Positions 531-61,774 of a stretch of 64,000 nt of DNA are shown piece after piece. The stretch covers positions 4,554 to 68,553 of the forward strand of contig CAZLYK010000003.1 in the NCBI GenBank assembly GCA_964563495.1, in the 5' to 3' direction. Source of the stretch: an uncultured Heliobacteriaceae bacterium. GTDB lineage: Bacteria > Acidobacteriota > Blastocatellia > RBC074. The notes beneath the pieces are model-generated. The model ran no database searches and was not told where the DNA came from. It saw only the letters and a list, made by a program, of their open reading frames with translations. Within the stretch, counting starts at the first letter, position 1. Each line of letters starts with the position of its first letter. A program made the translations under genes and the position numbers.

Positions 531-628
531 AAATAGACAGGATGACAGCGGTTTTCACGTTTGTCTGACCGCGTCCTCGGGTCAGACAAACGTGAAAACC
601 GCTGTCATCCTGTCCAAATCCTGTCTAT
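531..628. repeat. Palindromic intergenic element E1 (TIR AATAGACAGGAT...ATCCTGTCTATT with a 34-bp perfect core hairpin at 536-612)
   Basis: Left TIR at 531-542, right TIR at 617-628. The perfect stem is gacagcggttttcacgtttgtctgacc / ggtcagacaaacgtgaaaaccgctgtc around a 9-nt loop. The element lies between two cytochrome genes. Confidence 0.8.
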
Positions 629-637
629 TCTGCCTAT

Positions 638-988
638 TTACTTCTTGGCCAACTCGCGGACATACCCGACGAGCTGTTTGCACTTGTCCGCGCCGAGGCT
701 CTTTTCATAGCCCGGCATTTTGCCTTTGCCCTTGGAGGTGACCTCGAGGAGCTTGGCGTCGGTCATTCCCTGAACCTCTTTCGAGCGCAGGTCTTTGAGG
801 TTCAGTTTGGTACCCATGGCAGTCTTGCCGCTGCCGTCTGTGCCATGGCAGCTGGCGCACTTCTGGTTATAAAGCGTCTTGGTCTCCTGGAACATCGGGC
901 CGGCCCCGAGCGAACTCGGTGACCAGGCCACCAAAACCAAGGCGACGGATGCAAAGAAAATAGCCAGTTTTCCAAATTTGGGGTTCAT
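638..988 (-). CDS. Monohaem class I cytochrome c (periplasmic)
   Basis: ORF 638..1057; the likely start is the internal MNPKFGKLAIFF signal peptide, preceded by AAAGGAG. It has a single CASCH motif and GKGKMPGY (Met sixth ligand). It is a paralog of the ORF at 7367..7795. Confidence 0.75.
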   Translation of the reverse strand: MNPKFGKLAIFFASVALVLVAWSPSSLGAGPMFQETKTLYNQKCASCHGTDGSGKTAMGTKLNLKDLRSKEVQGMTDAKLLEVTSKGKGKMPGYEKSLGADKCKQLVGYVRELAKK

Positions 989-1097
989 CGTAAACTCCTT
1001 TAAGTTTAGTGATAGGTTAAGGGGTAAAAACGAACACTTTGATGATCCAATTACCAAATTGGTTCGATTTGATCAAGAGATCACCACCAGTTACAAA

Positions 1098-2771
1098 TTA
1101 ATTCTCACCTTTCCCGATCAGGCGGCGAATCCGCGTGTAGAAGAGCGAGACGACCAGGGCCATCAATCCGAGAAATAGAAAGGCCGCGACGCGGTACTTG
1201 GGCGCCAGGCGCGCCAGATCGACCAGGAATAGATAGACGACAGTTACCAGCATCACCCCCATCGCCATGAAACGATACTTGATATTCTGGAGCAGGTAAC
1301 TGAAGCTAAAATACCCGATCGCGACCGCCGTCCACGAGAGCGTCACATACTGGCCCGGGACGATCTGATACAAGGCGTAGAGAATCATGGCAAAAGCGAT
1401 AAAAAGATAGACGTTACGGAGCGACTCTGTCCGAAGCGTAAGCCGCTCTTTTTGCCAGTTGATAATCCGGGCGCTGGCGTGCGCGACGATGACGAAGCTG
1501 AAATTGACCAGGTTCGAAGACGGAGCGGTCGTCAGGTAAGCGAGCAGGATCCCGATAAAGATCAATGAGTTGACGACGACCAGAAATCTGGACCTGAACC
1601 AGAGAGCCATCGAGACGACGAGCAGGCTTTGCAGCGAGAGCCACAAAAAAGAGGTTGGGATTGCCGCGTATCCGTAGATCGCGATGCTCAGCGCCATAAA
1701 TCCAAAACAGGCATATATTGCCGGCGCCAGTTGCCGGTGTGTCTTCAGCCACTGGATGATCGAGATCAAGAGAAACAGCCCGGCTACACCCAGGTAGACT
1801 GCCGCGTACCTCTCCGGAAAGTGAGTCATGACCGCCAGGAAGGCGAGCAGAGAAAAACCCAGGCAGTTGAGCAAAATCTCGGCAATCGAGATCGAGAGGG
1901 CGGTCTCGGAGTCTGCTTCCTTCCGCAGGAGCGCGGGAAGAGTAAAGATTGCCGCGTATAGAAATAAATAGCCCAGGTTGTATTGATGTTCGGTCACGCC
2001 GCGCAGGGTATGCCCGGCCAGGGGATTGTTGAGCAGCCAGAGCAAATGGGTGGAGTAGGCCAGAATAGTCGTCGCCATGAGCAGCCGCCACCAGCCATAA
2101 CGGATCTCCAGGAAGACTCCGAGGGCGCAAACCACCACCACCAGCGGCAAGCCGATGTGTGTTTTGTCGATCAGCAATGCCGAGACCAGCGCCGAGACGA
2201 TCGCCAGGGTCGCCAGCCCCTGGGATTGCCGCCTGAGCGCGAGATAAAGTTGAAGCCCGACAACTATCAGGAGCAGGGAAAAAGCCGGATAGAGATAACC
2301 GATCAACGGCTCGGCTGAAAAGAAGTGCAGCCGCATGGTCGTGTAAAAGAGCAGCAGCAGGCTGCTGTTGACCGTAATCCGGGACAGGTGCGGGGTGTCT
2401 TTGCTCCAGATCTGCGCAAGATAGGACAACCCGGCGGAAGCCGCGTAGCCCAGAATGCTGGCGAGGATCGGGTATCCGAGGCTGAAGGTATAGGTCACCA
2501 GAAAGACGATGCCGAGAAAGAAAATGATGCTCCCGACCCAGGCCAGGCCGAACTCGCCTATCTTCATCTCGACGGAGCCCTGCCCATACTCCGATGGTTT
2601 CGAAGCAGAGGCGGGCGCCTGTCCGGATGCCGGGCCTGCGAGCTGAGTGACCTCCCCGGCCGGCGCCAATCCAAGGTAGTTTTCGAGACTGGCGATTCGC
2701 ACTTCGAGATTGGTCAGAGCCTCGGATATTTTCGTTTCATCCAGCCCCTGCCGAATTTCCGGATGTGTCAT
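1098..2771 (-). CDS. Polytopic integral membrane protein, DUF2339-like (about 14 predicted TM helices), soluble N-terminal coiled-coil region
   Basis: 557 aa dominated by hydrophobic helices after an 80-aa polar N-terminus. It is embedded in the cytochrome operon. Function is unknown. Confidence 0.5.
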   Translation of the reverse strand: MTHPEIRQGLDETKISEALTNLEVRIASLENYLGLAPAGEVTQLAGPASGQAPASASKPSEYGQGSVEMKIGEFGLAWVGSIIFFLGIVFLVTYTFSLGYPILASILGYAASAGLSYLAQIWSKDTPHLSRITVNSSLLLLFYTTMRLHFFSAEPLIGYLYPAFSLLLIVVGLQLYLALRRQSQGLATLAIVSALVSALLIDKTHIGLPLVVVVCALGVFLEIRYGWWRLLMATTILAYSTHLLWLLNNPLAGHTLRGVTEHQYNLGYLFLYAAIFTLPALLRKEADSETALSISIAEILLNCLGFSLLAFLAVMTHFPERYAAVYLGVAGLFLLISIIQWLKTHRQLAPAIYACFGFMALSIAIYGYAAIPTSFLWLSLQSLLVVSMALWFRSRFLVVVNSLIFIGILLAYLTTAPSSNLVNFSFVIVAHASARIINWQKERLTLRTESLRNVYLFIAFAMILYALYQIVPGQYVTLSWTAVAIGYFSFSYLLQNIKYRFMAMGVMLVTVVYLFLVDLARLAPKYRVAAFLFLGLMALVVSLFYTRIRRLIGKGEN

Positions 2772-2815
2772 AACCTCACCTCAAGATATTGTTAATGACC
2801 AGAGCCAGCCTTCTG

Positions 2816-7241: not shown

Positions 7242-7264
7242 CTTGGGGTATCCTTTCTCACTTT

Positions 7265-7349
7265 AATAGACAGGATGAACAGGATTTTTTCAGGATCGAC
7301 AAGCTGGAGTCCGATCATTCCTGAGAAATTCTGGTTGACCCTGTCTATT
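7265..7349. repeat. Palindromic intergenic element E2
   Basis: The element begins with AATAGACAGGATGAACAGGATTTTTTCAGGAT and ends with a CTGTCTATT terminus. It lies between the heptahaem cytochrome gene and the monohaem cytochrome c paralog. Confidence 0.75.
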
Positions 7350-7366
7350 TCCTTATCCCGGTGCGT

Positions 7367-12461: not shown

Positions 12462-12509
12462 ATTATTCTTGTTGTTGAATGGTATCATGCGGAATATTTT
12501 GTAAATTCA

Positions 12510-18525: not shown

Positions 18526-19197
18526 ATGCATCAGGTTAATCTGGAGACCGATATGCTGGAGATGAATCAACATCTCGCCGAGGAGAACGCGGAGATCTTC
18601 CGGAAGCAGGGCGTTTTCGTCATGAATCTCATGTCGGCGCCGGGCGCGGGAAAGACATCGATCCTCGAACAGACGATTGGTCGGCTTAAGCAAGCTTGCC
18701 GGATCGGTGTGATCGAAGGCGATCTCGTCACGACCATCGATGCCGACCGGATCTCCGTACTCGGTGTACCTGCTTACCAGATAACTACCGGAACCGTCTG
18801 TCACCTGGACGCTCGAATGGTCCACAATGCGCTGCACACTTTTCCGATCAGCGGGTTGGACCTGCTGGTAATCGAGAATGTCGGCAACCTGGTCTGTCCG
18901 GCTGAGTTTAATTTGGGTGAAGATCTGAAAGTCATGGTCTACAGCGTAGTCGAGGGTGCCGAGAAGCCGATGAAGTATCCGGTCATGTTTCACGAAGCGG
19001 AGGCCGTCCTGCTCAATAAAATCGACCTCCTGCCTTATTCGGGCGTCAGCCTGGAAGATCTGCGGCGCAATGTACTCGCGGTCAACCCGCGCGCTCAGAT
19101 CATTCCCGTCTCCTGCCGAACCGGTGAGGGTGTCGATCAGTGGATCGACTGGCTGAAAGGAAGAATAGACAGGGTTAACCGGATTTCACCGGATTAA
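18526..19197 (+). CDS. hypB: Hydrogenase maturation GTPase HypB (short form without His-rich N-terminus)
   Basis: SAPGAGKTS P-loop and ENVGNLVCP motifs. The last 11 codons and the stop are encoded inside repeat element E3. Confidence 0.85.
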   Translation: MHQVNLETDMLEMNQHLAEENAEIFRKQGVFVMNLMSAPGAGKTSILEQTIGRLKQACRIGVIEGDLVTTIDADRISVLGVPAYQITTGTVCHLDARMVHNALHTFPISGLDLLVIENVGNLVCPAEFNLGEDLKVMVYSVVEGAEKPMKYPVMFHEAEAVLLNKIDLLPYSGVSLEDLRRNVLAVNPRAQIIPVSCRTGEGVDQWIDWLKGRIDRVNRISPD

Positions 19198-19263
19198 ACA
19201 GGATCAAAGGCAGCAGAAAAAATCCGGTTCAATCCGGTGAAATCCTGTCGATCCTGTCTATTT
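19164..19263. repeat. Palindromic intergenic element E3 (overlaps the hypB 3' end)
   Basis: AATAGACAGGG ... ATCCTGTCGATCCTGTCTATT with an internal inverted repeat ccggatttcaccggatt / aatccggtgaaatcc. Confidence 0.75.
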
Positions 19264-19311
19264 TTGATGATGAACACGAGTCCTCGATTACAACCCGGTG
19301 AGCGGTTGCGA

Positions 19312-21579
19312 ATGGTGATCCGCGGCGCGGTGCAGGGAGTTGGCTTTCGCCCGTTTATCTATCGCCTGGCGACCGGATTGGGGTTATCGGGATGGGTCAG
19401 GAATTCGTCACAAGGAGTCTTGATAGAGGTCGAGGGTGCGAGGGAGAGGTTGGAGGCTTTTTTGCTGGGGATCGAGAGGGAGAGGCCGCCGCGGTCATTC
19501 ATTCACAGCCTCGAATCGGCTTTCCTGGATCCAGTGGGATTGACCGGTTTCAAAATCCTGGAGAGTGCCGAGAGCGGCGCAAAGACCGTCCTCGTCCTGC
19601 CCGACATCGCGACTTGTCCGGATTGCCTGGGTGAAGTCTTCGATCCCGCTGACCGCCGCTATCTTTATCCATTCACCAATTGCACCAACTGCGGGCCGCG
19701 TTTCAGCATTATCGAAGCCCTGCCGTATGACCGCGTGAACACGACCATGAAGAAATTCACCATGTGTCAGGCATGTGCGGCAGAGTACCATGATCCGCTC
19801 GATCGAAGATTCCACGCGCAGCCGAATGCCTGTCCCGAGTGCGGTCCTCAACTGGAGTTGTGGGACAGGGCAGGAAAGATTCTCTCCCGGCGCGGTGCGG
19901 CGCTGATCGGGGCCGCCGAGGCGATCCGCCGCGGCGAGATCGTGGCGGTCAAGGGGTTGGGCGGATTTCATCTGATGGTCGACGGCCGCAACCACGCGGC
20001 GATCGATCGGTTGCGACGGCGCAAGCATCGTGAAGAGAAGCCGTTTGCGCTCATGTGCCCGTCGGTCAAACAGATTGAGAGTAACTGCCGGGTCTCAGAG
20101 ATCGAGCGCCGTCTATTGCTTTCGCCGGAATCGCCGATCGTCCTGCTCGAACGAGCATCGACAATTCCAAATCGCCACTCAGCCATCTCCAGGTCGGCAG
20201 CCCCGGGGAATCCGTATCTCGGCGTCATGTTGCCGTATACGCCGCTGCACCATCTGCTGCTCTCAGAGCTCGACTTTCCGATCGTGGCGACGAGCGGCAA
20301 TCTGACCGATGAGCCGATTTGCACAGACGAACTGGAGGCGCTCGAAAGGCTGAGCGGGATCGCGGACCTGTTGCTGGTTCATGATCGGCCGATTGCGCGG
20401 CATCTGGACGATTCGATCGTCCGCGTCATGGCCGGCCGTGAGCTGGTCATGCGTCGCGCCCGCGGGTATGCGCCGCTGCCGCTTCATTTAAGTCAAGCCA
20501 TGCCGCCGGTGCTCGCCACCGGCGCAGATTTGAAGAGCGCGATTGCGATCTCGGTCGGGAATGATGTCTTCATCAGCCAGCACATCGGCGACCTGGAAAC
20601 CGCGCCGGCTGATGAGGCCTTTCGGCGAGTCACCGAAGACTTTGAAAAGCTCTACGATTTCCAGCCTTCCCGTGTCGCGTGTGATTTGCATCCGGATTAC
20701 CGCTCGACCAGGTTCGCCGAATCTCTGGGGAGGAAGGTCGAGCATATTCAACATCATTGCGCGCACGTCGCGGCGTGTATGGCCGAGAACGAGATTTGGG
20801 GGTCGGCGCTGGGTGTCGCCTGGGACGGAACCGGATACGGGCTGGACGGGACCATCTGGGGCGGCGAGTTTTTGCAGGCCGCCGGCGGGGATTTTCATCG
20901 TGTCGCGCATCTTCGTACTTTCCCGCTGCCCGGTGGCGAGAGAGCCGTGAGGGAGCCGCGCCGGATTGCAATCGGGATGCTCTATCAAATCTACGGCGCC
21001 CGGCTGTTCGAGATGGAGGACCTGGCGCCGCTCAAAACATTGACTACTCACGAGCGCGGAATCCTGCGGACCATGCTGGAGCGCAAGGTCAATACGCCGC
21101 TGACCTCGAGCGCCGGCCGGCTCTTCGATGCCGTGGCCGCGATCACGGGCCTGCGCCAGACAGCCAGGTTCGAGGGGCAGGCCGCGATGGAGCTGGAATT
21201 TGCGCTCGGAGGCATGATCGACAATGAGACCTATCCATTCGAGATCGGGCCCGAAACGGGGCCGGGTTCTGCCGGAGTGATCGATTGGGAACCGATGATT
21301 CGCGCGATCCTGGATCACGTCGCTGACCATATTTCGATCGCTCAGATCTCGGCGCGCTTTCACAACACGCTGGTCGAATCGATCATCGCGGTCGCGCGAT
21401 TGACGGGCGAAGAGCGGATTTGCCTGTCCGGAGGCTGTTTTCAGAACAGGTATCTGACCGAGAGGGCAATCTCTCGTTTGCGCGAGGTCGGCCTGCGTCC
21501 TTACTGGCACCAGCGCATTCCGCCCAACGATGGAGGGATTGCGCTCGGCCAGGTTGTCGCGGCCGCTGGGATAATCTGA
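19312..21579 (+). CDS. hypF: [NiFe]-hydrogenase maturation carbamoyltransferase HypF
   Basis: Acylphosphatase domain (VQGVGFRPF), two CxxC...CxxC zinc fingers, a YrdC-like domain and a Kae1-like domain. The start is taken at MVIRGAVQG; an upstream ATG at 19267 is also possible. Confidence 0.9.
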   Translation: MVIRGAVQGVGFRPFIYRLATGLGLSGWVRNSSQGVLIEVEGARERLEAFLLGIERERPPRSFIHSLESAFLDPVGLTGFKILESAESGAKTVLVLPDIATCPDCLGEVFDPADRRYLYPFTNCTNCGPRFSIIEALPYDRVNTTMKKFTMCQACAAEYHDPLDRRFHAQPNACPECGPQLELWDRAGKILSRRGAALIGAAEAIRRGEIVAVKGLGGFHLMVDGRNHAAIDRLRRRKHREEKPFALMCPSVKQIESNCRVSEIERRLLLSPESPIVLLERASTIPNRHSAISRSAAPGNPYLGVMLPYTPLHHLLLSELDFPIVATSGNLTDEPICTDELEALERLSGIADLLLVHDRPIARHLDDSIVRVMAGRELVMRRARGYAPLPLHLSQAMPPVLATGADLKSAIAISVGNDVFISQHIGDLETAPADEAFRRVTEDFEKLYDFQPSRVACDLHPDYRSTRFAESLGRKVEHIQHHCAHVAACMAENEIWGSALGVAWDGTGYGLDGTIWGGEFLQAAGGDFHRVAHLRTFPLPGGERAVREPRRIAIGMLYQIYGARLFEMEDLAPLKTLTTHERGILRTMLERKVNTPLTSSAGRLFDAVAAITGLRQTARFEGQAAMELEFALGGMIDNETYPFEIGPETGPGSAGVIDWEPMIRAILDHVADHISIAQISARFHNTLVESIIAVARLTGEERICLSGGCFQNRYLTERAISRLREVGLRPYWHQRIPPNDGGIALGQVVAAAGII

Positions 21580-21581
21580 AA

Positions 21582-21630
21582 AATAGACAGGATCGACAAG
21601 ATTTCAAAAGAGATTAAACAGGGATAGAAC
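21582..21630. repeat. Truncated (left-half) copy of the palindromic element, E4
   Basis: AATAGACAGGATCGACAAGATTTC with no matching right terminus. It begins 3 nt after the hypF stop. Confidence 0.55.
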
Positions 21631-21654
21631 CTGGCATTGAGGGGAAACAGGAAA

Positions 21655-25929: not shown

Positions 25930-27029
25930 AGTTCATCGACGAATACCGCGACGCCGAATCTGCTCAGACCTGCGCCGAAGCCATTGCCGGACTGATCACC
26001 CGGCCCTGGACGCTCATGGAGGTCTGCGGCGGTCAGACGCATTCGATCGTCAAGTTCGGCATCGATGAGCTCCTCCCAGCTGAGTTGACGCTGGTCCACG
26101 GGCCCGGCTGTCCGGTCTGCGTGACCCCTCTCGAGCAGATCGATAAGGCGATCGAGATCGCTTCGCGCCCCGAAGTGATCTTCTGTTCCTTCGGCGACAT
26201 GCTGCGCGTCCCCGGCAGCGAGAAGGATCTCTTCATGGTCAAGGCGGCAGGCGGGGATGTCCGCGTAGTCTATTCGCCGCTCGATTGTTTGAAGATCGCG
26301 CGCGAGAATCCCGGCAGGATCGTCGTCTTTTTCGCGGTCGGGTTCGAGACCACGGCGCCGCCGAATGCGATGGTCGTATATCAGGCGCGCGAGCAGGGGA
26401 TCGACAACTTTTCGATCCTCGTTTCACACGTCCTGGTCCCTCCGGCGATGGAGGCGATCCTCTCTTCGCCGGGCAACCGCGTCCAGGGCTTTCTGGCCGC
26501 CGGCCACGTCTGCACGGTCATGGGCTATACCGAATATGAGCCGATCGCCGATAAGTACCGTGTGCCGATCGTCGTCACCGGGTTCGAGCCGCTCGATATA
26601 TTGCAGGGCGTGCTCATGTGCGTCCGGCAGTTGGAGGAAGGGCGGGCAGAGGTCGAAAACCAGTATGCCCGTTCGGTCAGACGCGAAGGTAACCAGCACG
26701 CCCAGAAGGTGATCAATCAGGTTTTCCGGGTCTCACCCCGCAAATGGAGGGGGATCGGCGAGATCCCGCAAAGCGGCCTGACTTTGAGCGAAGACTATGC
26801 CGAATTCGACGCCGAGCGCAGGTTCGGATTGACCGGTTACACCGCCGATGAGCCGTCCGAATGCATAAGCGGGTTGATCATGCAGGGCGTCAGGAAACCG
26901 CACGAATGCACGGCTTTCGGCTCACGGTGCACACCCGAAAAACCTCTCGGCGCGCCGATGGTCTCGAACGAAGGCGCCTGCGCCGCCTATTACCGATATC
27001 GACGGAACCTGGGAAATAGACAGGATTGA
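25926..27029 (+). CDS. hypD: Hydrogenase maturation protein HypD
   Basis: [13 protein letters not shown] and FEPLD motifs. The last four codons plus the stop (NRQD*) are encoded by repeat element E5. Confidence 0.9.
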
Positions 27030-27090
27030 CAGGATTTGACCAGACCTGATCTTGTTCAGTCCTGCATCGATCCGGTTGATCATGTCTATT
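27015..27090. repeat. Palindromic intergenic element E5
   Basis: AATAGACAGGATTGACAGGATTTGACC ... GATCATGTCTATT (right TIR slightly degenerate). Confidence 0.75.
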
Positions 27091-27109
27091 TTCTCGACGG
27101 GTCTTGATT

Positions 27110-28165: not shown

Positions 28166-28185
28166 ACTAATCCGCTCAACCCTGC

Positions 28186-28539
28186 CTACCTCTTCTTCGC
28201 TATCGCCTGCCCGGTGAATGCGCTCGCGTGCGCTTCATACTTCTCCTGCAAACTGGAACAGACCAGATCGCATAGCTCGAAGATCGATTCGTCAGCGATC
28301 GAATAATAGACCGTATTGCCTTCCTGTCGACGCCCAACCAGCCCGGCATCCTGCAAAATGCGCAAATGCTTGCTCACATTCGGCTGCGTCGATTCCACCT
28401 CGGCTGCAATCGAATTGACACTCATCCCTCCGCCTTCCAATACCTGCAGTATTCGCAGCCTCATCGGATCCGAAAGCACCTTGAACCGAGCCGCCACCAA
28501 TTGCAACGCCTCCATCGTCTTGATCAACTGCCTCTTCAC
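28186..28539 (-). CDS. ArsR/SmtB-family transcriptional regulator
   Basis: MRLRILQVL and QPNVSKHLRIL winged-HTH motifs. Divergent from the DUF302 gene. Confidence 0.8.
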   Translation of the reverse strand: MKRQLIKTMEALQLVAARFKVLSDPMRLRILQVLEGGGMSVNSIAAEVESTQPNVSKHLRILQDAGLVGRRQEGNTVYYSIADESIFELCDLVCSSLQEKYEAHASAFTGQAIAKKR

Positions 28540-29439: not shown

Positions 29440-29613
29440 AGACCGTTCTGCCTGTGAAATCTTCCCATTAAAGCGTGCGGGCGCCCAGGCGTTGGGTGAT
29501 TTTTCGCAACGGTGCCTGGGCGTCATAATTGGAATTTGTTCTATCTGATCGCCTGATAATCTATGGCATCTTTTTTGCGTGATTGACCAAGATGACGAGT
29601 TGGAGTTTGGTTA

Positions 29614-29640
29614 AATCCTGCAAAGATCATGTCTATTCTG
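29614..29640. repeat. Solo right-end fragment of the palindromic element, E6
   Basis: AATCCTGCAAAGATCATGTCTATTCTGCC resembles the right termini of E1 and E5. Confidence 0.5.
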
Positions 29641-29703
29641 CCTGTTGTCGGTCGTTTAATTAGGTGATGGATGGGAAATGAGGGCTAAAAAGGGACGAAA
29701 GCG

Positions 29704-32334: not shown

Positions 32335-32709
32335 ATGACTACCCTGAAATATGATACGTTTTTCAATCTGGACGCCCTTTCGCTGATCGCCAAAGGGCTG
32401 AGCCTGATCAGCATTCTGATCCTCGCGCTTTTCTTTATCGGCGAAGGGTTCAATCCATCGAAGATTCAGCTCAATGAATGGATCCTCTTTCTCTTCTTTC
32501 CGTTCGGCCTGATTACCGGGATGGTTGTCGCCTGGTGGAAAGAGGGGCTGGGCGCGATGATCGCGGTCGGCAGCCTGGTCGGATTTTACCTGGCCCATTT
32601 TCTGCAGACCGGAGGGCTGCCGCGCGGATGGGCCTTTCTGGCCTTTGCCGTGCCCGGATTTCTGTTTCTCGTCCATTGGCTGATAACCAGGTTCAATCGA
32701 CAGGATTAA
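32335..32709 (+). CDS. Small four-TM membrane protein of unknown function
   Basis: Start MTTLKYDTFF after AAGGGGGAA. The last 5 codons plus the stop (FNRQD*) are encoded by repeat element E7. Confidence 0.4.
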   Translation: MTTLKYDTFFNLDALSLIAKGLSLISILILALFFIGEGFNPSKIQLNEWILFLFFPFGLITGMVVAWWKEGLGAMIAVGSLVGFYLAHFLQTGGLPRGWAFLAFAVPGFLFLVHWLITRFNRQD

Positions 32710-32777
32710 CAGGATTTCAACAGGATTAAACCGGATGGTTTTCCATCTTGCTTTTGATCCGGTTAACCCTGTCTATT
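32695..32777. repeat. Palindromic intergenic element E7
   Basis: AATCGACAGGATTAACAGGATTTCAACAGGATTAAACCGGAT ... ATCCGGTTAACCCTGTCTATT. Confidence 0.75.
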
Positions 32778-32807
32778 TCCTGCTTTGATCTGTTCAGGTG
32801 AATAGTT

Positions 32808-37538: not shown

Positions 37539-37586
37539 CGGTTTTCAGAGTCGTCCGTCCTGTCAGACGCACGACTCTGAAAACCG
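37539..37586. repeat. Solo core hairpin of the element family (type II core), E14
   Basis: cggttttcagagtcgtccgtc CTGTCAGA cgcacgactctgaaaaccg. The loop carries the TGTCAG motif. Confidence 0.55.
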
Positions 37587-37603: not shown

Positions 37604-38551
37604 ATGAAAAAGCCGACGCCTTTTGGAAATCTCGAAGTTCTTGATGCGCACATACACTTTTTTTCGCACAATTTTTTTCAAACCCTGATCAATCAATCTC
37701 CCGGATTGAGTGCGGATGCAGCTCCTTTCGGCCGCGCCGCTGAGATGACGGGGTGGCGGATGCCTCCGGCCGACCCGGAAGAGCTGGCGCGAATCTGGAT
37801 CGCCGAACTCGATCGGCGCCAGGTCTCAGCCGGGATGATGATCGCCAGCGTTCCCGGTGACGAAGAATCGATCGCGGCCGCGGTCAAGGCCTTCCCGGAT
37901 CGAATCGCCGGGGCTTTTATCGTCGACCCCAACAGACCCGATGCAGAAGCACGAACGCGGCGCGCCTTCGACGAGATGAAGCTCCGTGTGGCCTGTCTTT
38001 TCCCGGCCATGCACAATTTTTCCGTGGCAGAATCCGAAGGCGCCCACGCGATCGCCGCGCTGGCGGGTGAGCGTCCGGGGACGGCCCTCTTCGTCCATTG
38101 CGGCGCCCTCTCCGTCGGCGCACGAAAGAAATTGGGCTTGCGATCCCACTTCGACATGCGACGCTCGAATCCGCTGGAGATATATCGTCTCGCCGCCGAG
38201 TTCCCCGCGGCCAACTTTATCGTTCCTCATTTCGGCGCCGGCATGTTCCGCGAAGCGATGATGCTCGCCGACCTCTGTCCGAACGTTATGATCGATACTT
38301 CGAGCAGCAACAAATGGATCAATTACGAAACCTCTCCCGTCGACCTGCCGACGATATTCAAACGGGCTCTGGCGGTAGTCGGTGACCAGCGGTTATTGTT
38401 CGGCACGGACTCGTCGTTCTTCCCACGCGGGTGGCAGGAGGATATCTTTCATACCCAGGTCAATGCCTTACTGGAGATCGGTGTGAGCGAGGAACAGGCC
38501 GGGGCGATTTTTGGCGGAAATTTACGCCGGTTGCTCAATGTAAAAAATTGA
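37604..38551 (+). CDS. Amidohydrolase-2 family metal-dependent hydrolase (TIM barrel)
   Basis: LDAHIHFF N-terminal motif. Confidence 0.6.
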
Positions 38552-38561
38552 GATAGAAGAA

Positions 38562-38629
38562 AATAGACAGGATTGAACCAGATTATTATCCCGTTCAATC
38601 CTGCAGAAATCCTGTCAATCCTGTCTATT
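38562..38629. repeat. Palindromic intergenic element E8
   Basis: AATAGACAGGATTGAACCAGATTATTATCCCGTTCAATCCTGCAGAAATCCTGTCAATCCTGTCTATT. Confidence 0.75.
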
Positions 38630-38650
38630 TTTATGTGCGAGGAGGGCGGA

Positions 38651-45788: not shown

Positions 45789-47192
45789 ATGAGTCGGATA
45801 CTTCATTTAATTGAGAATTTCGTCCTGGCGATCTATTTTTGCGTAATCTGGCTGACGCCGGCCAATTTGCGCAGCGCCTCGCGAATCATGTCCAGTGGGC
45901 GATGGCGGGTGACGACCTGGCTGCGCGAGCGGCGGGATTTTCTGCCGCTGGCTGCGCTCATGCTGACCGTGGCATTGTCGACCCTGGTTTTCGGGCAAAC
46001 GCCCGAGGGTACTGGAATCGCGACTACTTCGACTGCCGCATTGCCGGCCGATCTGATCGAACTACGGCGAGAAGGAAATGCCGCCCTCTATAACATAGAT
46101 TACCCGACGGCCAGGACAAAGTTCGAGGAGATCAGGAAACGGCTGCCCTCTCATCCGGCAGGAGACCTCTATCTGGGAACTCTGATCTGGCTCGAACACC
46201 TCAACAAGAGCCGGCGATTGCAGACCGGTCTATATAGCAATGAATCGAGCTTTTATGCCGGCGCCGACAAGGCCAGTGAGGACAATGAAGGAGACGCGGT
46301 CGACCCGGCTGTCGATAAGGCGTTTCGCGACCGGATGGCTCAGGCTAAAACAAAGGCCCTCGCTCTGGTCAATCGCAACAAGAATGACGCCGACGCGGTC
46401 TACTTTCTCGGCGCCGTCTACGGAGTCATGGCCGGTTACGAGGCGTCCGTCGCGCGTAAATTCTTCGCCGCCATACGAAATGGATCGCGCGGCGTTGACG
46501 CCCACGAAAAAGTGCTCAAATTGAACCCGAATTATTATGACGCCTACCTTTCAGTCGGCATGTACGATTACATCATCGGCAGTCTGCCATTTGCCTACAA
46601 AGCGCTGGCGACGATCGCCGGTTTTCGCGGGAACAAGCAGAGAGGGATCAGCCGGTTGCAGACGATTATCGGGAAAGACGTTGCCACCTCCGATGACGCT
46701 CGGGTCATGCTGCTGGCGATCTATCAAAATGAAAAACGCCATCAGGACGCCCTCGCCATCCTTCAGGAACTGAACGCCAAATACCCGAACAGTTACCTGC
46801 TCAAGCTGGAGACGGCCTCAACCCTGGTCACGCTCAAGCGCAGCGAGGACGCCTATCAGGCATTCGAGAACCTGCTCAAGGACGAGACGACTGCGGCGAT
46901 CGTCGATCTGATTCATTTTCAATACGCCGAGGCGCTCGCTCTGAACCTGGAATTCAAACGCTCGGCCGAGCATTTTCTCGCGGCCTCTCAATCCAAAACG
47001 GCCGATGCGAACCTGGCGACCCTGGCGCTCCTGCGAGCCGCCCAGGTCTATGACCTCGCCGGCAGCCGCGACGCTGCTCTGGCTCAGTATAAAGCCGTCC
47101 TCGCGCGACCCAATGTTTACGATACGCGCGAACAGGCAGAACGTGGATTGAAGGAGCCTTTCCGCCGCAAACAGGAAGAGAAGAAGGGGTGA
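45789..47192 (+). CDS. TPR-repeat protein with N-terminal membrane anchor
   Basis: Repeated helical TPR-like units. Function is unknown. Confidence 0.45.
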   Translation: MSRILHLIENFVLAIYFCVIWLTPANLRSASRIMSSGRWRVTTWLRERRDFLPLAALMLTVALSTLVFGQTPEGTGIATTSTAALPADLIELRREGNAALYNIDYPTARTKFEEIRKRLPSHPAGDLYLGTLIWLEHLNKSRRLQTGLYSNESSFYAGADKASEDNEGDAVDPAVDKAFRDRMAQAKTKALALVNRNKNDADAVYFLGAVYGVMAGYEASVARKFFAAIRNGSRGVDAHEKVLKLNPNYYDAYLSVGMYDYIIGSLPFAYKALATIAGFRGNKQRGISRLQTIIGKDVATSDDARVMLLAIYQNEKRHQDALAILQELNAKYPNSYLLKLETASTLVTLKRSEDAYQAFENLLKDETTAAIVDLIHFQYAEALALNLEFKRSAEHFLAASQSKTADANLATLALLRAAQVYDLAGSRDAALAQYKAVLARPNVYDTREQAERGLKEPFRRKQEEKKG

Positions 47193-47195
47193 AGA

Positions 47196-47329
47196 AATAG
47201 ACAGGATTGACAGGATTTGTGCAGGATTAAACAGGATTATTGGAAAAAGGTGTGGTTGGGATAACCTCTATCATGCCTATATTGATCATCCTGTTTAATC
47301 CTGCACAAATCCTGTCAATCCTGTCTATT
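47196..47329. repeat. Palindromic intergenic element E9 (longest copy; 42-bp perfect TIRs and a 50-bp unique core)
   Basis: AATAGACAGGATTGACAGGATTTGTGCAGGATTAAACAGGAT ... ATCCTGTTTAATCCTGCACAAATCCTGTCAATCCTGTCTATT. The tatC stop codon lies inside the right TIR. Confidence 0.85.
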
Positions 47330-48380
47330 TCTTCGAGCCGGCGAACTCTTCATCGGACTGGCGGGGTTTACCGAAGGCCCAGACGATCCCCACGCTCAGG
47401 AAATAGAGACCGAGCATCGGCGTTGCAAACATCATCATATTGAATGCGTCGGGAGTCGGCGTCAGGACGGCCGAAATGATCGCGATGCTGACGATTGCGA
47501 CCCGCCAGGCCCTGAACATCATGCGCGGGGTCAAGAGCCCGATCCGGCCGAGCACGAAGGCGATCGTCGGGATCTGGAAGACGATGCCGAGGCCGAGCAT
47601 GATCATAATGATCAGGTCCAGGTAGTCCTCGGCGTCGAGCAAAGTCCGAAAACCTCCCTCGACGGCCAGCCCCAACAGATAATCGCAAGCGGCGGGGAAG
47701 GCGATCCGGTATGCGAAACTCGCGCCGAGGGTAAAAAAGACGGTCGACATGACCAACACCGGGACGATGTATTTTTTCTCGTGCTTGTAGAGTCCCGGTG
47801 AGATAAACGCCCAGATCTGGTAGAAGAGGAAGGGGACGGCCAGCGCGATGCCGGCGTAGAGCGCGACTCTCATGTAGATCATGAAAGAACTGGTCACGCC
47901 ACGCAGCACGAGCTGGTTGCTCTCGTCGTCAAAAAAGATCTGTGTTTGTCCTTCCTGGAAGATCTTGCTCAGCGGAGTCTCGGCCGGGACTACGGTTTTA
48001 GCAACCGACCATTGATCGGCGAGGACGAGCATCGGCTTATTGTCCTTGGCCACCTTTTTGACCAGGATCGTCGTCCCGAGCGGGATCTTTACCCCATTGA
48101 CCGCGGTCTCCTGGGTAAAGGTGTACTGGAGTATCTCTCCATCTTTGATCTGGCCGATGTCGACCTGTCCTGACGCCGCTTGCTGCGCGCGCCGGGCTTT
48201 CTGTAATTGCTTGATCACCGGGACTGAAAGGAATTTATAGATCTCTTCTGAAAAAACGAAGCAGAGGGCGAACGCCACGGCAATCGAGACCACCGAATAG
48301 ATCAGCCTGCGACGCAGCTCGTCGAGGTGATCCAGAAACGACATCTGTAATCCTTCTTGCGCTGCTATCTCGTCGCTCAT
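47325..48380 (-). CDS. tatC: Twin-arginine translocase subunit TatC (with a roughly 100-aa insertion in the first periplasmic loop)
   Basis: MSFLDHLDELRRRL N-terminal motif. Six TM helices. Confidence 0.8.
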   Translation of the reverse strand: MSDEIAAQEGLQMSFLDHLDELRRRLIYSVVSIAVAFALCFVFSEEIYKFLSVPVIKQLQKARRAQQAASGQVDIGQIKDGEILQYTFTQETAVNGVKIPLGTTILVKKVAKDNKPMLVLADQWSVAKTVVPAETPLSKIFQEGQTQIFFDDESNQLVLRGVTSSFMIYMRVALYAGIALAVPFLFYQIWAFISPGLYKHEKKYIVPVLVMSTVFFTLGASFAYRIAFPAACDYLLGLAVEGGFRTLLDAEDYLDLIIMIMLGLGIVFQIPTIAFVLGRIGLLTPRMMFRAWRVAIVSIAIISAVLTPTPDAFNMMMFATPMLGLYFLSVGIVWAFGKPRQSDEEFAGSKK

Positions 48381-53444: not shown

Positions 53445-54559
53445 GCCCAATAAACGACAAATCGTTGCGGACAGTTCGGGTTGAACTGGGAGAGCGCAGC
53501 TATCGGATTGCAATTGGAGACGGATTGCTGTCTGCCGCCGGCGAGATCGCCCGCGACGCACTCGGTCCGAAAGCCAGGCGCGTGGCGATCATCACCAATT
53601 CCCTGGTCGCTCGGCATTTCGGCAAGAGAGTCGAGAGGAGTCTACGCCAGGCCGGATTGGCGACGCTGACGCACCTGATCGGCGACGGTGAGCGGGCAAA
53701 ATCGCTGCGCACCGCAGAGCGTGCCTGGGCATTCCTGATTGCCAACCGGCTTGAACGCGCCGATGGAATTGTCGCGCTTGGCGGCGGAGTGGTTGGGGAT
53801 CTGGCGGGTTTTGTCGCTGCGACATTTCTGCGCGGCGTGAATTACGTCCAGATACCGACGACGCTGCTCGCGCAGATCGACAGCTCGGTCGGGGGCAAGA
53901 CGGCGGTCAATCATCCTCTCGGCAAGAATTTGATCGGCGCTTTTCATCAACCTCGGGGGGTCATCATCGACCCCGCCGTCTTGAGGACTCTGCCGGTGCG
54001 AGAGCTGCGCGCCGGCCTCTATGAGGCAGTCAAATACGGGATCATTCGCGACCGGGCGCTGGCCGCTTTTATCCAAAACAATCTGGTCAGGATCGAGGCG
54101 CTCGATTCAGAATCCCTCAGTCATCTGATCGCTCGCTGTTGCCGGATCAAAGCCGAGGTCGTCGCCGCGGATGAACGCGAATCCGGTCTGAGACGGATAC
54201 TGAACTTCGGCCATACGGTCGGCCACGCGCTCGAAGCGGTAACCTCATACCGCCGGTTGAAGCACGGAGAAGCGGTCGGCTATGGGATCAAGTGCGCTTC
54301 GGCAATTGCAGAAAAAGTTGGTATAATCTCCGGCGCTGATGCCCACGCGATAAAACAAAGCGTTGAGGCTTTGGGCAAACTCCCCCGGATCGGCGATCTG
54401 AAACCCCAAGACGTCATCGCCGCGATGGCGCATGACAAGAAGATTGCCCAAGGAAAACTCCCCCTTATTTTACCTACTCGAATCGGCGAGGTGGTTGTGC
54501 GTCACGATATCGCGCCGGCTGTGATCCGGGCAGCGGTCCGCGAATTGCTTTTTGATTGA
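53441..54559 (+). CDS. aroB: 3-dehydroquinate synthase
   Basis: GGGVVGDLAGF and IPTTLLAQIDSSVGGKTAVN motifs. Confidence 0.85.
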   Translation: MSPINDKSLRTVRVELGERSYRIAIGDGLLSAAGEIARDALGPKARRVAIITNSLVARHFGKRVERSLRQAGLATLTHLIGDGERAKSLRTAERAWAFLIANRLERADGIVALGGGVVGDLAGFVAATFLRGVNYVQIPTTLLAQIDSSVGGKTAVNHPLGKNLIGAFHQPRGVIIDPAVLRTLPVRELRAGLYEAVKYGIIRDRALAAFIQNNLVRIEALDSESLSHLIARCCRIKAEVVAADERESGLRRILNFGHTVGHALEAVTSYRRLKHGEAVGYGIKCASAIAEKVGIISGADAHAIKQSVEALGKLPRIGDLKPQDVIAAMAHDKKIAQGKLPLILPTRIGEVVVRHDIAPAVIRAAVRELLFD

Positions 54560-54564
54560 GAAGA

Positions 54565-54658
54565 AAATAGACAGGATTAACAGGATTTTCACAGGATTAA
54601 ACAAGATCAAAGACAAACCAAAGAAGCATCCTGTGAAAATCCTGTTAATCCTGTCTAT
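54565..54658. repeat. Palindromic intergenic element E10 (32-bp perfect TIRs)
   Basis: AATAGACAGGATTAACAGGATTTTCACAGGAT ... ATCCTGTGAAAATCCTGTTAATCCTGTCTATT. Confidence 0.85.
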
Positions 54659-54682
54659 TTTCTCCTTTCCCGAGGAGAAGTT

Positions 54683-55623: not shown

Positions 55624-55643
55624 TCAAATCATCGGACAGAATT

Positions 55644-58981: not shown

Positions 58982-59095
58982 ATTCGACTGAAATCGAATG
59001 GGTTACAGCGGTTTTTCAGTTTCGTGCGTCTGACAGGACGCACGAAACTGAAAAACCGCTGTAACCCTGCAAACGTCCCGTTAATTCTGTCTATT
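58982..59095. repeat. Palindromic intergenic element E12 (type II core hairpin plus right TIR)
   Basis: 28-bp stem ggttacagcggtttttcagtttcgtgcg / cgcacgaaactgaaaaaccgctgtaacc with loop TGACAGGA, then AATTCTGTCTATT. Confidence 0.7.
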
Positions 59096-59743
59096 GTCTG
59101 CTTCGATAATTTCCAATCTGCGCCACTGCCTGCGCAGTTGCAGAACTTCGTCCGCCAGTTCGCTCAACTGAGCTTTGATCTTTGTCCCGTCTTCCAGCCC
59201 GACAAGGTGGGGGTAACGACGTGGGAGGGCCAGTTGGCGAACCGGCTCGCGAGCCGTCGCCGGAACACGGGTGATCATTTGATAAATTCGAAATTCCGCC
59301 GGTCCCAGATCTCGCTTGACCCATCTGAGGATCCTGCCTATTTCGGGGTCGCATTCGGAGACGGCATTGAGTAAAGCGCTGCAGATGAAGGCAGCGCAGA
59401 AGACCGTCTTGCCGAATTTGTTGTTTGGATCGCAACCCTGCGAGCCGATCACGCGGCAGGTTGGTGGACAGCAGCCCGTACCCTGTTCGTGGCAGCGGCG
59501 GCAGATCTCGAGAACGCCGCTTGCGGCAAAGAACCGGTCGAGTTCTGCGATCAGTTCATGGCGGGTGATCTCCCCGGGCGTTTCGGCTCTCTGGTATCGC
59601 TCATCTCTGGCGCAGCGCGGACAGAGCACAAAATCGCTCTCCTCGTGCGGTTCACCGCGGGGCGCAAGAGTGTAAAGCCGATACCGGCGGGCGTTTGCCG
59701 CACCGCAGGATTGGCAGGTTCCATCCTGTTTGAGTAAGACCAT
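59081..59743 (-). CDS. Cysteine-rich hypothetical protein (zinc-ribbon plus CxxC...CC cluster)
   Basis: CQSC...CPRC and CRRCHEQGTGCC motifs. The last codons and stop (NRQN*) are encoded by element E12. Confidence 0.4.
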   Translation of the reverse strand: MVLLKQDGTCQSCGAANARRYRLYTLAPRGEPHEESDFVLCPRCARDERYQRAETPGEITRHELIAELDRFFAASGVLEICRRCHEQGTGCCPPTCRVIGSQGCDPNNKFGKTVFCAAFICSALLNAVSECDPEIGRILRWVKRDLGPAEFRIYQMITRVPATAREPVRQLALPRRYPHLVGLEDGTKIKAQLSELADEVLQLRRQWRRLEIIEADNRQN

Positions 59744-59781
59744 TCTTTATTTTCACTGGAATCAGCGGATCAAAGAAGAGA

Positions 59782-59842
59782 AAAGACAGGATTAACCGGA
59801 TTTCGACAGGATTAAACAGGATCGCTGTCATCCTCTCTATTT
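59782..59842. repeat. Palindromic intergenic element E11 (variant TIRs)
   Basis: AAAGACAGGATTAACCGGATTTCGACAGGATTAAACAGGATCGCTGTCATCCTCTCTATT. Confidence 0.6.
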
Positions 59843-59895
59843 CTCTTTCTTCTCGAATTTTTTCGGTCAGATGATGACCTTCGTCCAAGCCGGCC

Positions 59896-61599
59896 CTAAA
59901 GATTGCCCCGCTTCAATTCATCAGCCAGGTAATCGCAGGCGCGCGCCGTGATCGCCATCATGGTCAATGTCGGATTCTGACAACCCTGTGAGACGAAGCA
60001 CGACCCGTCGGTGACAAAGACGTTCTTGGCATCCCAGAGCTGGTTCCACTTGTTGAGGACGGAAGTCCCGGCGTCGACGCCCATGCGAGCGGTCCCGACC
60101 TCGTGAATGCAGAAGCCGGGAGGCGCCGGAGAATTGCTCGCGAATTGAGTTTCAAAACCGGCGGCGTCGGCCATCTCGCGAATTGATTCAAGGGCGTCCA
60201 CGGCCATGGCGCGCTCGTTGTCGCTGTGCGTACATGCTATGTGTAGCACGGGGATGCCCCAGGCGTCGACTTTGTTCGGATCGATCGTGGCCCGGTTCTC
60301 TCTGCGAGGCAACATCTCGCACCAGGCGCCGAGCCAGAAGTTCACCTCGTTCGGGTTTTCGCGGACAAACTTCTTGAATTCGGCACCAAAGCCGGGACGC
60401 TGTTTGGCGTGGTCATAGGTGTAACCCAGCCCGGCGCGGCCCTGCATCCCGTAACCGCGAATGAAGTTCGGATGCCTGGCTTTTAGATTGCGGAAGCGCG
60501 GGATATAGACCCCGTTGGCGCGACCGTCGGAGTAATCGTATTCCATCCCTTTGAGCGTCGGCACGACGCCGCCCGCGCTGATCTGAAACATGTGGTCCAT
60601 GAGGTAGCGACCGACCAGATCCGAAGAGTTGCCGAAGCCATTGGGATGCCGGCTCGACTTCGAATTCAAGAGAATCCGCGTCGATTCGAGCGTCGAGGCG
60701 CAGAGCACGATGACCCTGCCGTATTCTTCATCATCCTTTTTGGTCAGCTGATCGACTACGCGAACGCCTTTCGCCTTGCCGGTTTTGTCATCGATCAGGA
60801 TTTCACGGACGACGGCGTTTGGGCGCAGGGCCAGGCGCCCGGTCTTCGCCGCTGCGGGCAGTGTCGAGCCGACGCTGCTGAAATAGGAATGGGTATCGCA
60901 GCCGCGGTCGCAATGGCCGCAATAATGGCACTGCGCTCGACCCTGGTGCGGTCTGGTCAGAATCGCGGCGCGGCCGATGATCACTTTGCGATCGTCCCAC
61001 CGCTTCTCGACCGCGTGCTTGAGCAGCTGTTCACCGCAAGTCATGGCCATCGGCGGCAGAAATTTGCTGTCGGGCAATTGAGGAAGGTTCTCGGATGATC
61101 CGCTGATCCCGACAAAATCCTCGACCTGCTCGTAATAGGGCTCCAGGTCTTTGAGACTGATCGGCCAATCCACGCCATAGCCGTCGCGACTCGCGGCTTT
61201 GAAATCGAAATCCGAAAGGCGGTACGACTGGCGTCCCCAGGTCAGCGAGCGACCTCCGACCTGGCGCCCGCGTATCCACCAGAAAGGTTTGTCCTCCGGC
61301 GTGGAGTAGGGATTATCCAGATCGTCGACAAAGAAATGGGCGCTGTATTCGTTGCCGGCGTAGCACCTGCTCTGAATCGGCTGGCGCGGCGCGTAGACCG
61401 ACCCTGGCGCCAGGCCGCGGTATTTGAGCTGATAGGGCTCAGTCAGCATGCGATAGTCTTTTTTCGGATCGACATGCCTGCCCGCTTCGAGGACAAGTAC
61501 TTTGAGCCCCTTCTCCGTCAGCACTTTGGCGGCCCAACCGCCAGTCGCTCCAGAACCGACGACGATTGCATCGTAGACCTTTCGCTTGGCTCTTTGCAT
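59896..61599 (-). CDS. GMC-family FAD-dependent oxidoreductase
   Basis: N-terminal [12 protein letters not shown] Rossmann motif. AGGAGA RBS. Confidence 0.8.
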
Positions 61600-61686
61600 C
61601 AATGGATTCTCCTGTTTATGGTGCGCTCGAACGACAATCTAACCCAGGAAGCACAGCGACAGCAATCTTGACCTGAACCGGAGGAA

Positions 61687-61774
61687 AATAGACAAGATTA
61701 TAGCAAGTTTCACGTTTGTGCGACCACGTCCTCGCGGTCGCACAAACGTGAAACTTGCTATAATCCTGTCTATT
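61687..61774. repeat. Palindromic intergenic element E13 (type I core hairpin, sister of E1)
   Basis: AATAGACAAGAT ... ATCCTGTCTATT with stem agcaagtttcacgtttgtgcgacc / ggtcgcacaaacgtgaaacttgct and loop ACGTCCTCG. Confidence 0.8.

Follow-up and report, generated by a model that had tools for sequence, protein, structure and literature searches.

The 64,000-nucleotide stretch of contig CAZLYK010000003.1 analysed here, hereafter the window, contains hairpins in which base changes on one side of the stem are matched by changes on the other. The four core hairpins concerned, E1 and E13 (type I) and E12 and E14 (type II), are inner modules of one intergenic mosaic repeat family in an acidobacterial (Blastocatellia-like) genome, built from short units that end in ACAGGAT. 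Their compensated changes are confirmed as real and far beyond chance, though with two sequences per type, and they reveal that the left and right arm of a copy have a common history. The reading that we favour, with a probability of roughly one half, is that the ACAGGAT elements are non-autonomous, selfish foldbacks similar to repetitive extragenic palindromic (REP) sequences and their inverted doublets (REPINs) or to miniature inverted-repeat transposable elements (MITEs), with arms that co-evolve through foldback copying or repair. Such foldbacks would have multiplied in this lineage, inserting beside gene ends and then decaying; copying or repair would proceed via a single-stranded hairpin intermediate, or with one arm templating the other, so that a change in one arm would be carried over to its partner. 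The ability to form a hairpin would then be a property of the replicating unit and need not serve the host. Quasi-palindrome mutations of this kind, in which one arm serves as template for correcting the other, form a recognised class. The partner enzyme is not encoded in the window, and its best candidate is the GxxExxY protein (PF13366) rather than a REP-associated tyrosine transposase (RAYT); what we infer from the patterns described below is that the elements move in this genome, that copying goes through a foldback and that GxxExxY may take part.

All four cores reported in the initial annotation were recovered in place, namely E1 at 563-587 (GTCTGACC-GCGTCCTCG-GGTCAGAC), E13 at 61718-61743 (GTGCGACC...GGTCGCAC), E12 at 59017-59050 (CAGTTTCGT/ACGAAACTG) and E14 at 37546-37579 (CAGAGTCGT/ACGACTCTG). 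They are the tips of far longer palindromes, the stems of E1, E13 and E12 measuring 35+35 nt (100% complementary), 48+48 nt (94%) and 31+31 nt (100%), respectively. E1 and E13 are 82-84% identical over about 90 nt, and their RNAalifold alignment contains 36 pairs, seven of which are altered on both sides while none is altered on one side only or broken; the paired substitutions claimed for type I are therefore fully substantiated (7/7 stem differences compensated). The stems are indeed kept despite these differences, but the loops are not the same, since that of E13 has one extra base. For type II, the comparison of E12 with the reverse complement of E14, which has the opposite orientation and no ACAGGAT arms, yields 22 pairs, including two truly compensated ones (TT/AA to AG/CT) and a paired 1-nt indel (T5/A5 versus T4/A4). 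Here too paired change is evident, but the E14 stem has one C-C mismatch and the loops had been mis-delimited: the type II loop is TGACAG (4-6 nt) instead of the 8 nt quoted previously, because GCGTC and GACGC pair too. ACAGG is therefore only partly unpaired in type II, and it is absent from the type I loop, contrary to the idea that the loops expose the ACAGG/CCTGT motif of the family. Folded as single-stranded DNA, the four cores reach -22 to -50 kcal/mol and fold equally well on both strands; on each strand all of them beat their shuffled versions, with z-scores of -9 to -20 and 0/200 shuffles as good.

That four unrelated hairpins have acquired paired differences by coincidence is effectively refuted. 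Each type has two copies, which is all that can be said for such a coincidence, and the identity between E1 and E13, the full compensation of their stem differences and the z-scores of the cores all speak against it. The same conclusion follows from the family as a whole, in which the left arm of a copy matches its own right arm better than the right arms of other copies (0.62 versus 0.33 for the 12 two-armed copies, permutation p = 5e-5). This excess is carried by E1, E3, E11, E12, E13, E14 and E54; for E2, E5, E8, E10 and E59 the match to the own arm is no better than that of the cross-pairs. Comparison with more than 140 collected loci (blastn-short; loci are cited below by L numbers) returned no type I or type II cores beyond the copies in the window, and a metagenome scan with ACAGCGGTTTTN{25,55}AAAACCGCTGT retrieved 12 unrelated hairpins and no further copy of either type. 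Three of these metagenome hairpins (L121 2215-2275, L125 1178-1229 and L127 1417-1489) have TTACAGCGGTTTTCA...TGAAAACCGCTGTAA in common with E1 and E12, a likeness that extends past the searched 11-mers, and the self-complementary interior differs in each. The module of L127 is nested within arms of CACAGAGG units, and therefore the inner module may also be widespread.

The family to which the cores belong comprises about 15 elements within the window, all lying between open reading frames (ORFs) or overlapping their last codons. Sequences matching ATAGACAGGAT with at most one mismatch occur 29 times, versus 0.64 expected, always as convergent pairs. A full copy begins at its outer end with (G)AAGAAAATAGACAGGAT, followed by more units of 9-11 nt that each end in ACAGGAT; the left arm consists of two to four such units, and the right arm mirrors it. 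The elements have terminal inverted repeats (GAAGAAAATAGACAGGAT... at both ends) and an outer stem AAAATAGACAGG/CCTGTCTATTTT with a short terminal U run on either strand and TATTTT(C/T) tails. The centre is either unpaired (E11, E54) or occupied by a type I (E1, E13) or type II module (E12). Copies range from perfect (E1, E12) and near-perfect (E11, E13, E54) to decayed (E2, E5, E8, E10), and there are also half elements (E4, E6, E7) and a chimera (E59).

The initial annotation had concluded from the covariation that the structure itself is under selection. This does not follow from two sequences per type, and it sits poorly with the decay of E2, E5, E8 and E10, the chimeric nature of E59, the position of E13 between divergent genes and the uncompensated decay of one arm in a related pair of loci presented below. 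Nor is there an excess of wobble pairs, given that arm mismatches read on the sense strand amount to 15 G·U, 10 A·C and 22 transversions in nine copies with an assigned direction, a small number that includes E13, the direction of which was later overturned. What is conserved across the family is the ACAGGAT unit, not a perfect stem, and most stems have mismatched spacers: in 19/67 elements from outside the window (versus 8.7 by shuffling) the two arms agree in their first spacer between units. The paired changes are accounted for no less well by copying of the foldback, or by repair of one arm on the template of the other, than by selection. What inclines us to such a mechanism is that the indel is paired, that copies grade from perfect to decayed, that a wobble signature is lacking and that E13 lies where it does.

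Most copies follow stop codons, and this keeps alive the alternative that the elements are RNA hairpins useful to the host, such as 3' stabilisers, attenuators, terminators or RNase III sites, with purifying selection acting on the pairing. We regard it as unlikely, if worth serious consideration. Besides the location of most copies at a stop codon or a few bases from it, with several of them inside operons, it could account for the outer stem ending in a short U run on either strand, for the higher complementarity of own over cross arms, and for the single mismatch of E13, which is G·T on the minus strand, so that pairing is full there. On the other side, the sense strand shows no excess of G·U, both strands fold equally well, and E13, among the best-kept palindromes, lies between divergent genes and hence downstream of none, which precludes a 3' mRNA hairpin. 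Decayed and chimeric copies are numerous, and structure alone would not keep ACAGGAT across phyla. A classical bidirectional terminator is moreover used elsewhere in the window (55643-55707), and Rfam 15 gave no match in the window at gathering thresholds. Even at E<=5 it returned plant and animal miRNA-precursor models alone, far below threshold, because these are generic long hairpins. A terminator scan did not report the elements either, but its definition (up to 20 pairs, loops of 3-8 nt) is blind to such long stems.

Another route to apparent covariation is illustrated by E13, each arm of which has an outward-facing extended -10-like box, TGCTATAAT, at 61697-61705 (minus strand) and 61756-61764 (plus strand). 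The boxes point at the divergent genes for a GMC oxidoreductase and an LptC/LptD_N protein, and TGNTATAAT occurs three times in the window versus 0.38 expected. Four or five of the seven compensated changes from E1 to E13 convert CCGCTGTCAT to TTGCTATAAT and thereby create the TGCTATAAT boxes. Symmetric promoter selection, or the co-option of a promoter-bearing subfamily, could thus mimic selection on pairing, and the boxes caution that paired changes in a DNA palindrome do not prove a selected stem.

Comparison with relatives bears on the turnover that foldback insertion would entail. Three relatives with a GMC oxidoreductase 76-83% identical to that of the window share its synteny (GMC ... 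arginine decarboxylase ... deoxyhypusine synthase ... LysM ... dehydroquinate synthase) and have no ACAGGAT elements in 12-21 kb. Their palindromes are of similar architecture, at comparable intergenic sites, and use other units, namely AGTTAAAAGT, CACGAAG/CACAAAG, GAGACGGGG and CCTTCACGTGATCCGGAAAAT (L131 9676-10000 and 16275-16400, L133 11700-11820, L132 9840-9880). At the site of E12, the arginine decarboxylase leader AAAAATAGTTTTTGACAGC...TACAGTCC is common to all three genomes aligned, and a small hairpin, CCGGAGG(G)TCCGG, is common to the window and L131. E12 is an extra block between this hairpin and the upstream stop codon, and L133 has at the equivalent site a palindrome of GAGACGGGG units. 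The small hairpin beside E12 is a retained ancestral terminator-like hairpin. With regard to a host-useful RNA, the occurrence of three different hairpins in three lineages at one site 5' of the arginine decarboxylase leader is in its favour; the addition of E12 beside a terminator-like hairpin already there, and the absence of the elements from relatives, are not.

A closer pair of genomes, L020 and L071 ('Muproteobacteria'-type, about 92% nucleotide identity over 7.5 kb), shares one ACAGGAT element, of which one arm is identical while the other has eight substitutions plus an indel, none of them compensated. Three palindromes made of other units (81, 113 and 72 nt) are present in one of the two genomes and absent in the other (alignment columns 1854-1935, 2809-2922 and 6621-6693, with units of GGAGGGAGG, CGCAAAGA and GCAGCAAG type, respectively); the 81-nt palindrome, found in L071, lies in frame within a conserved coding-like stretch. 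Presence/absence of this kind and decay of one arm are the traces of elements that are acquired, lost again and allowed to decay, as expected for the selfish foldbacks that we favour.

The ACAGGAT unit itself is not confined to the lineage of the window. A scan of species-representative genomes with ATAGACAGGATNNACAGGAT returned at least 110 loci, when about 17 chance matches are estimated for such a collection. They derive from Pyrinomonadaceae and other Acidobacteriota, from Anaerolineae, Dehalococcoidia and Chloroflexia, from Beta- and Gammaproteobacteria including the isolates Thiobaca trueperi and Thiocystis minor, from Planctomycetota including the complete genome of Planctomycetales ZRK34, and from Verrucomicrobiota, Bacteroidota, Latescibacterota and others. 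Palindromic arrangements of ATAGACAGGATNNACAGGAT are found in Acidobacteriota, Chloroflexota, Pseudomonadota, Planctomycetota, Verrucomicrobiota and Bacteroidota, and are absent from the close relatives of the window. Altogether 84 elements are palindromic in the 110 loci listed plus the window (five of them in the window), with arms of 15-61 nt that are 75-100% complementary and centres that are mostly unpaired. One copy on a finished plasmid of Ca. Thiodictyon is 89% identical to the arms of E11 and has no annotation under the match. A scan of viral contigs for the unit gave seven loci with a few palindromes. An ACAGGAT palindrome is also present at 112-192 of L054, a contig assigned to the archaeon Candidatus Methanoperedens sp. 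BLZ2, and is either real or a binning artefact.

This distribution raises the alternative that the arms are iteron-like, double-stranded DNA sites for a protein recognising ACAGGAT, the hairpin potential being a by-product. The 7-nt core is kept across phyla with spacers that vary and are usually non-complementary (48/67 elements), and, with a period of 9-11 nt, the sites fall on the same face of the helix. Long arrays of head-to-tail units with no inverted partner occur in L107 and L142, and the outward-facing boxes in the arms of E13 indicate that arm sequence can matter as duplex. Sites of this kind would nevertheless leave unexplained both the paired indel and the lineage-specific inner cores, which are perfect palindromes yet differ between copies; no candidate binding protein was identified, and a density of one element per 4-5 kb here versus one per 40 kb in Thiodictyon would be odd for a conserved regulator. 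We thus give little credence to this alternative. The array of L107 (5266 to the end) repeats ATTCACAGG at least 13 times with a 9-nt period and that of L142 (5540-5660) repeats GGACAGGAT/AGACAGGAT about 12 times, also every 9 nt, in neither case with an obvious inverted partner. Among known sites, those of DnaA, parS, IHF and CtrA were compared by eye and none fits. An RNA sponge for CsrA was considered, given that ACAGGAU resembles the CsrB repeat; it was dismissed since a long duplex would bury the motifs, which are moreover present on both strands.

The hairpins had also been described as the signature of REP elements recognised by RAYT/IS200-like transposases. The first half of this description holds, in that the elements are extragenic palindromes similar to REPs and to bacterial interspersed mosaic elements (BIMEs), with arms that are not independent; the second half finds no support in the window, where none of the approximately 57 ORFs matches Y1_Tnp in Pfam. 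A classical REP/REPIN system moved by a RAYT, that is an IS200/IS605-like Y1 HUH transposase, encoded elsewhere in the genome would account for an extragenic inverted doublet forming a long hairpin, and compensated changes across the hairpin are known for REPINs (PMC3116915). The absence of its gene from 64 kb also says little, as RAYTs are reported to be typically single-copy (PMC5581495). An all-against-all BLASTP of 1,198 ORFs from the 110 loci listed, however, revealed no recurrent transposase-like family beside the unit, the largest clusters being ABC ATPases (9 loci), aminotransferases (6) and short-chain dehydrogenases (5), and the sole ORF family within or between arms was PF13366. Likewise, a scan for exact units covered 53 arm pairs; where the arms are separated by more than 200 nt, unrelated pairs several kb apart being left out, the interval contains non-coding DNA or a PF13366 gene for a protein of 120-195 aa and in no case a transposase. 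The arms, moreover, are arrays of 9-11-nt units rather than a single imperfect palindrome of 20-40 nt, and the unit crosses phyla, whereas REP/RAYT systems are reported to pass mostly by vertical inheritance within lineages (bioRxiv 10.1101/2022.05.22.493013). A RAYT hidden elsewhere in the genome is hence very improbable as the agent of these repeats.

The GxxExxY protein (120-195 aa, PF13366/TIGR04256) has a PD-(D/E)XK fold, and its gene lies within or between the arms in 4 of the 110 loci listed, from four phyla. The arms of the window are built like those of such cassettes in L049, L102, L018, L112 and L116, as inverted arrays in which each unit has 9-10 nt and terminates in GGAT (ACAGGAT). 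The arms even enter the gene in L112 and L116: AACATGGATAGACAGGAT contains the ATG, a second copy of this arm in direct orientation encodes the C-terminal YKHG and provides the TAG stop, and the inverted arm then follows. The cassette of L112 (10001-10414) is inside a type I restriction-modification operon, while that of L115-L118 (10001-10417) is in a flagellar cluster between flgM and flgI. Among the 120 closest homologues, which are 72-100% identical and of which the few named ones belong to Gammaproteobacteria, Nitrospinota and Planctomycetota, 84 have D-x-Q-D at the N-terminus, as encoded by GAT-NNA-CAG-GAT, and the arm-encoded termini are disordered in the AlphaFold model. Distant members are also flanked by palindromes of GGAT units: NNCGCGGAT units lie 3' of the gene in Gemmatirosa and inverted ACACGGATTCG surrounds it in Treponema. 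Related arms also show in distant members as MNADERR or MNTDEHGY at the N-terminus and as NPVHPVHPV peptides at the C-terminus. Judged from sequence, gene and arms in these genomes look like a gene-repeat partnership. With 24,181 cluster representatives at 50% identity, this is a very large family, and it has been classed as 'Unknown' (PMC3424549). Some members of 250-280 aa, among them P0242, P0243, P0247 and P0250, are tandem two-domain proteins with two matched stretches each. A scan of viral contigs found no GxxExxY relatives, and a profile hidden Markov model built from four of the arm-associated genes found no GxxExxY gene in the six-frame translation of the window.

More tentatively, the ACAGGAT palindromes could belong to a cross-phylum superfamily of unit-array foldbacks with GxxExxY as partner, in which empty foldbacks such as those of the window would be offspring or homing targets and other members may use CGCGGAT, ACACGGAT, CACAGAGG or CGCAAAGA as units; we consider this wider scheme possible rather than probable. 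If it were true, a REP-RAYT-like partnership would exist on a different nuclease fold, with the start and stop codons of the gene placed in the arms; the very large orphan GxxExxY family would gain a function, and a second class of enzymes maintaining bacterial hairpin repeats would be recognised. Hairpin repeats with compensated changes are already familiar from REPINs, so it is the build from unit arrays, the cross-phylum unit and the link to GxxExxY that go further. The presence of one unit in palindromes of many phyla is not predicted by REP/RAYT biology, and no description of the elements, of the unit or of their link to GxxExxY was found in the searchable literature.

Several observations weigh against selfish foldbacks partnered by GxxExxY. 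First, the ORFs of the window yielded no transposase, whether RAYT/IS200 or other, and no nuclease, PD-(D/E)XK proteins included, and inspection of 12 copies revealed no direct repeat outside the termini that would mark a target-site duplication, AT-rich flanks blurring the ends. Second, nearly all copies lie directly 3' of a stop codon and several are intra-operonic, which also fits a role as mRNA hairpins, and with two copies per core type foldback copying is inseparable from selection on the stem. Third, the above-chance identity of first spacers, together with a unit spacing that is mirrored between arms in 17/24 cases (versus 10.4 by chance), implies that some pressure or mechanism keeps the arms in register family-wide. 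Fourth, the presence/absence variation was seen for palindromes of other units, not for ACAGGAT elements within one species. Finally, the link to GxxExxY is seen only in other genomes and mostly with the ACATGGAT-led subtype, while the subtype of the window begins with AAAATAGAC and so differs at the outer end from the gene-bearing one; the proteins remain 72-100% identical though their few named members span several phyla; and the N-terminal arm has decayed in L115, compared with L116, while the protein core is conserved, so the GxxExxY gene outlives its arms.

Among known systems, REPINs and REP-RAYT pairs of Pseudomonas fluorescens SBW25 and E. coli are the nearest in organisation, as short, high-copy extragenic palindromes in inverted doublets that form a long hairpin in single-stranded DNA or RNA, with compensated hairpin changes (PMC3116915) and with singlets or half elements arising by decay. 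Such systems are expected to include a dedicated gene with the repeats on either side, and GxxExxY would be its analogue here. Differences lie in the lack of a RAYT in the window, in arms that are tandem arrays of 9-11-nt ACAGGAT units instead of one imperfect REP, in a unit found in many phyla instead of being lineage-specific, and in the gene within the arms elsewhere, which encodes a PD-(D/E)XK protein and not a HUH Y1 transposase. Enterobacterial BIMEs combine REP variants with short linker motifs; the elements of the window are similarly mosaic (outer arms plus a type I, type II or unpaired centre) and similarly sited within operons or at gene ends, but modules and sequences are unrelated and unit arrays are found here. 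Correia elements of Neisseria and Rickettsia palindromic elements are bacterial MITEs at or inside gene ends that sometimes supply stop codons or promoters. They share with the present family a small, non-coding, palindromic nature, a position at coding ends and presence/absence between relatives, and the in-frame 81-nt insertion in L071 recalls the Rickettsia elements in particular. Terminal inverted repeats as in MITEs are present, no DDE-transposase parent was found, and in contrast with Correia and Rickettsia elements there is no detectable target-site duplication and the terminal repeats are made of internal tandem units. In intervening sequences of 23S rRNA a small ORF lies within a long stem; comparable here is a small gene, or nothing, between long complementary arms that RNase III could excise from the transcript of the host, and the GxxExxY cassettes are intra-operonic; no element here is in an rRNA gene, however. 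Bidirectional intrinsic terminators, finally, resemble the elements between convergent genes (E1, E11) in having runs of A and of T at opposite sides. They differ from the family in that its stems are of 30-50 bp with an AT-rich base, the U run is just 4-5 nt, many copies are intra-operonic and one (E13) is in a divergent promoter region.

Along the window, most elements start at or inside the final codons of a gene. E1 (526..647) has AAAATAGACAGGAT as its left terminus, a palindrome at 536-570/580-614 around its type I core and two additional right-hand units at 615-647; it lies between convergent genes and its terminal ATAGAC gives the TAG stop to both. E2 (7258..7358) is an ACAGGAT palindrome, now decayed, with a cytochrome c gene of the minus strand on either side. 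Several copies are inside the hyp operon. E3 (19156..19265), with four units per arm that are 84% complementary, lies between hypB and hypF, and E5 (27008..27099), a decayed palindrome, lies in the hypD/hypE interval; hypB and hypD end within the respective left arms, at the TAA or TGA of GGATTAA/GGATTGA (TAA for hypB). E4 (21575..21640) is a half element with the left arm alone, directly 3' of hypF, and right-arm remnants follow between hypE and an ArsR-family gene (E6, 28170..28199) and 5' of an outer-membrane efflux gene (E7, 29602..29647). E8 (32688..32786), also decayed, separates a DUF7670 gene, which again takes its stop from such a motif inside the arm, from the gene of an AcrB-type pump. 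E14 (37539..37586, minus strand) is a type II module alone, and E10 (38548..38638) is asymmetric, with a short left and a long right arm.

In the second part of the window, E11 (47189..47338) has arms of 50+50 nt, 98% complementary, around a 44-nt centre, and lies between convergent TPR and tatC genes, the terminal ATAGAC providing the stop of tatC. E54 (54552..54668) has arms of 39+39 nt, 97% complementary, with an unpaired centre of 30 nt, and lies between the gene for 3-dehydroquinate synthase and the ORF that follows. E12 (58991..59104, plus strand) has its type II core within a palindrome at 59000-59030/59037-59067, and its outer ACAGGAT arms are degenerate; it is placed between the stop of a 220-aa ORF, a TAG that it supplies through ATAGAC, and the terminator-like hairpin 5' of the arginine decarboxylase leader. 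E59 (59767..59850) joins a long, four-unit left arm to a truncated right arm of E1 type (ATAGAGAGGATGACAGCGATC on the other strand) and folds poorly, which suggests recombination or nested insertion between family members. E13 (61673..61783), the 48+48-nt palindrome with the variant type I core, occupies the divergent interval between the GMC oxidoreductase gene (minus strand) and the LptC/LptD_N gene (plus strand). Logan contigs of the same sample (SRR14932634; L134, L135) stop inside E1 (at 585) and inside E13 (at 61756), from which it appears that the palindromes break short-read assemblies. For annotation, the family thus accounts for assembly breaks, altered 3' ends of genes and possibly the promoter pair at E13.

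The genes of the window include those for a NiFe hydrogenase with its hyp maturation proteins, multihaem cytochromes, a Rieske/cytochrome b unit, formyltetrahydrofolate synthetase (FTHFS), a resistance-nodulation-division (RND) pump, TatA/TatC and arginine decarboxylase; there are no tRNA or tmRNA genes in it. The best named relatives of the GMC oxidoreductase are 74-83% identical and belong to metagenome-assembled genomes of Acidobacteria/Blastocatellia; the protein also has 100% matches at NCBI and in Logan, in the latter case on a contig from run SRR14932634. The LptC/LptD_N gene (61828-64000, plus strand) runs off the end of the window and is hence missing from the ORF list, while the minus-strand ORFs at 61816-62613 and 63001-63780 are shadow ORFs. 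Other palindromes occur too. At 55643-55707, between the convergent genes for a LysM-domain protein and deoxyhypusine synthase, a perfect 31+31-nt palindrome with internal A7/T7 runs has the appearance of a textbook intrinsic terminator that works in both directions, and it has no relation to the ACAGGAT family. Two further palindromes that are not of ACAGGAT type, at 12385-12469 (32 nt, 94%) and 12507-12572 (30 nt, 100%), are located in the divergent interval that separates the ORF at 12583 from a multihaem cytochrome gene.

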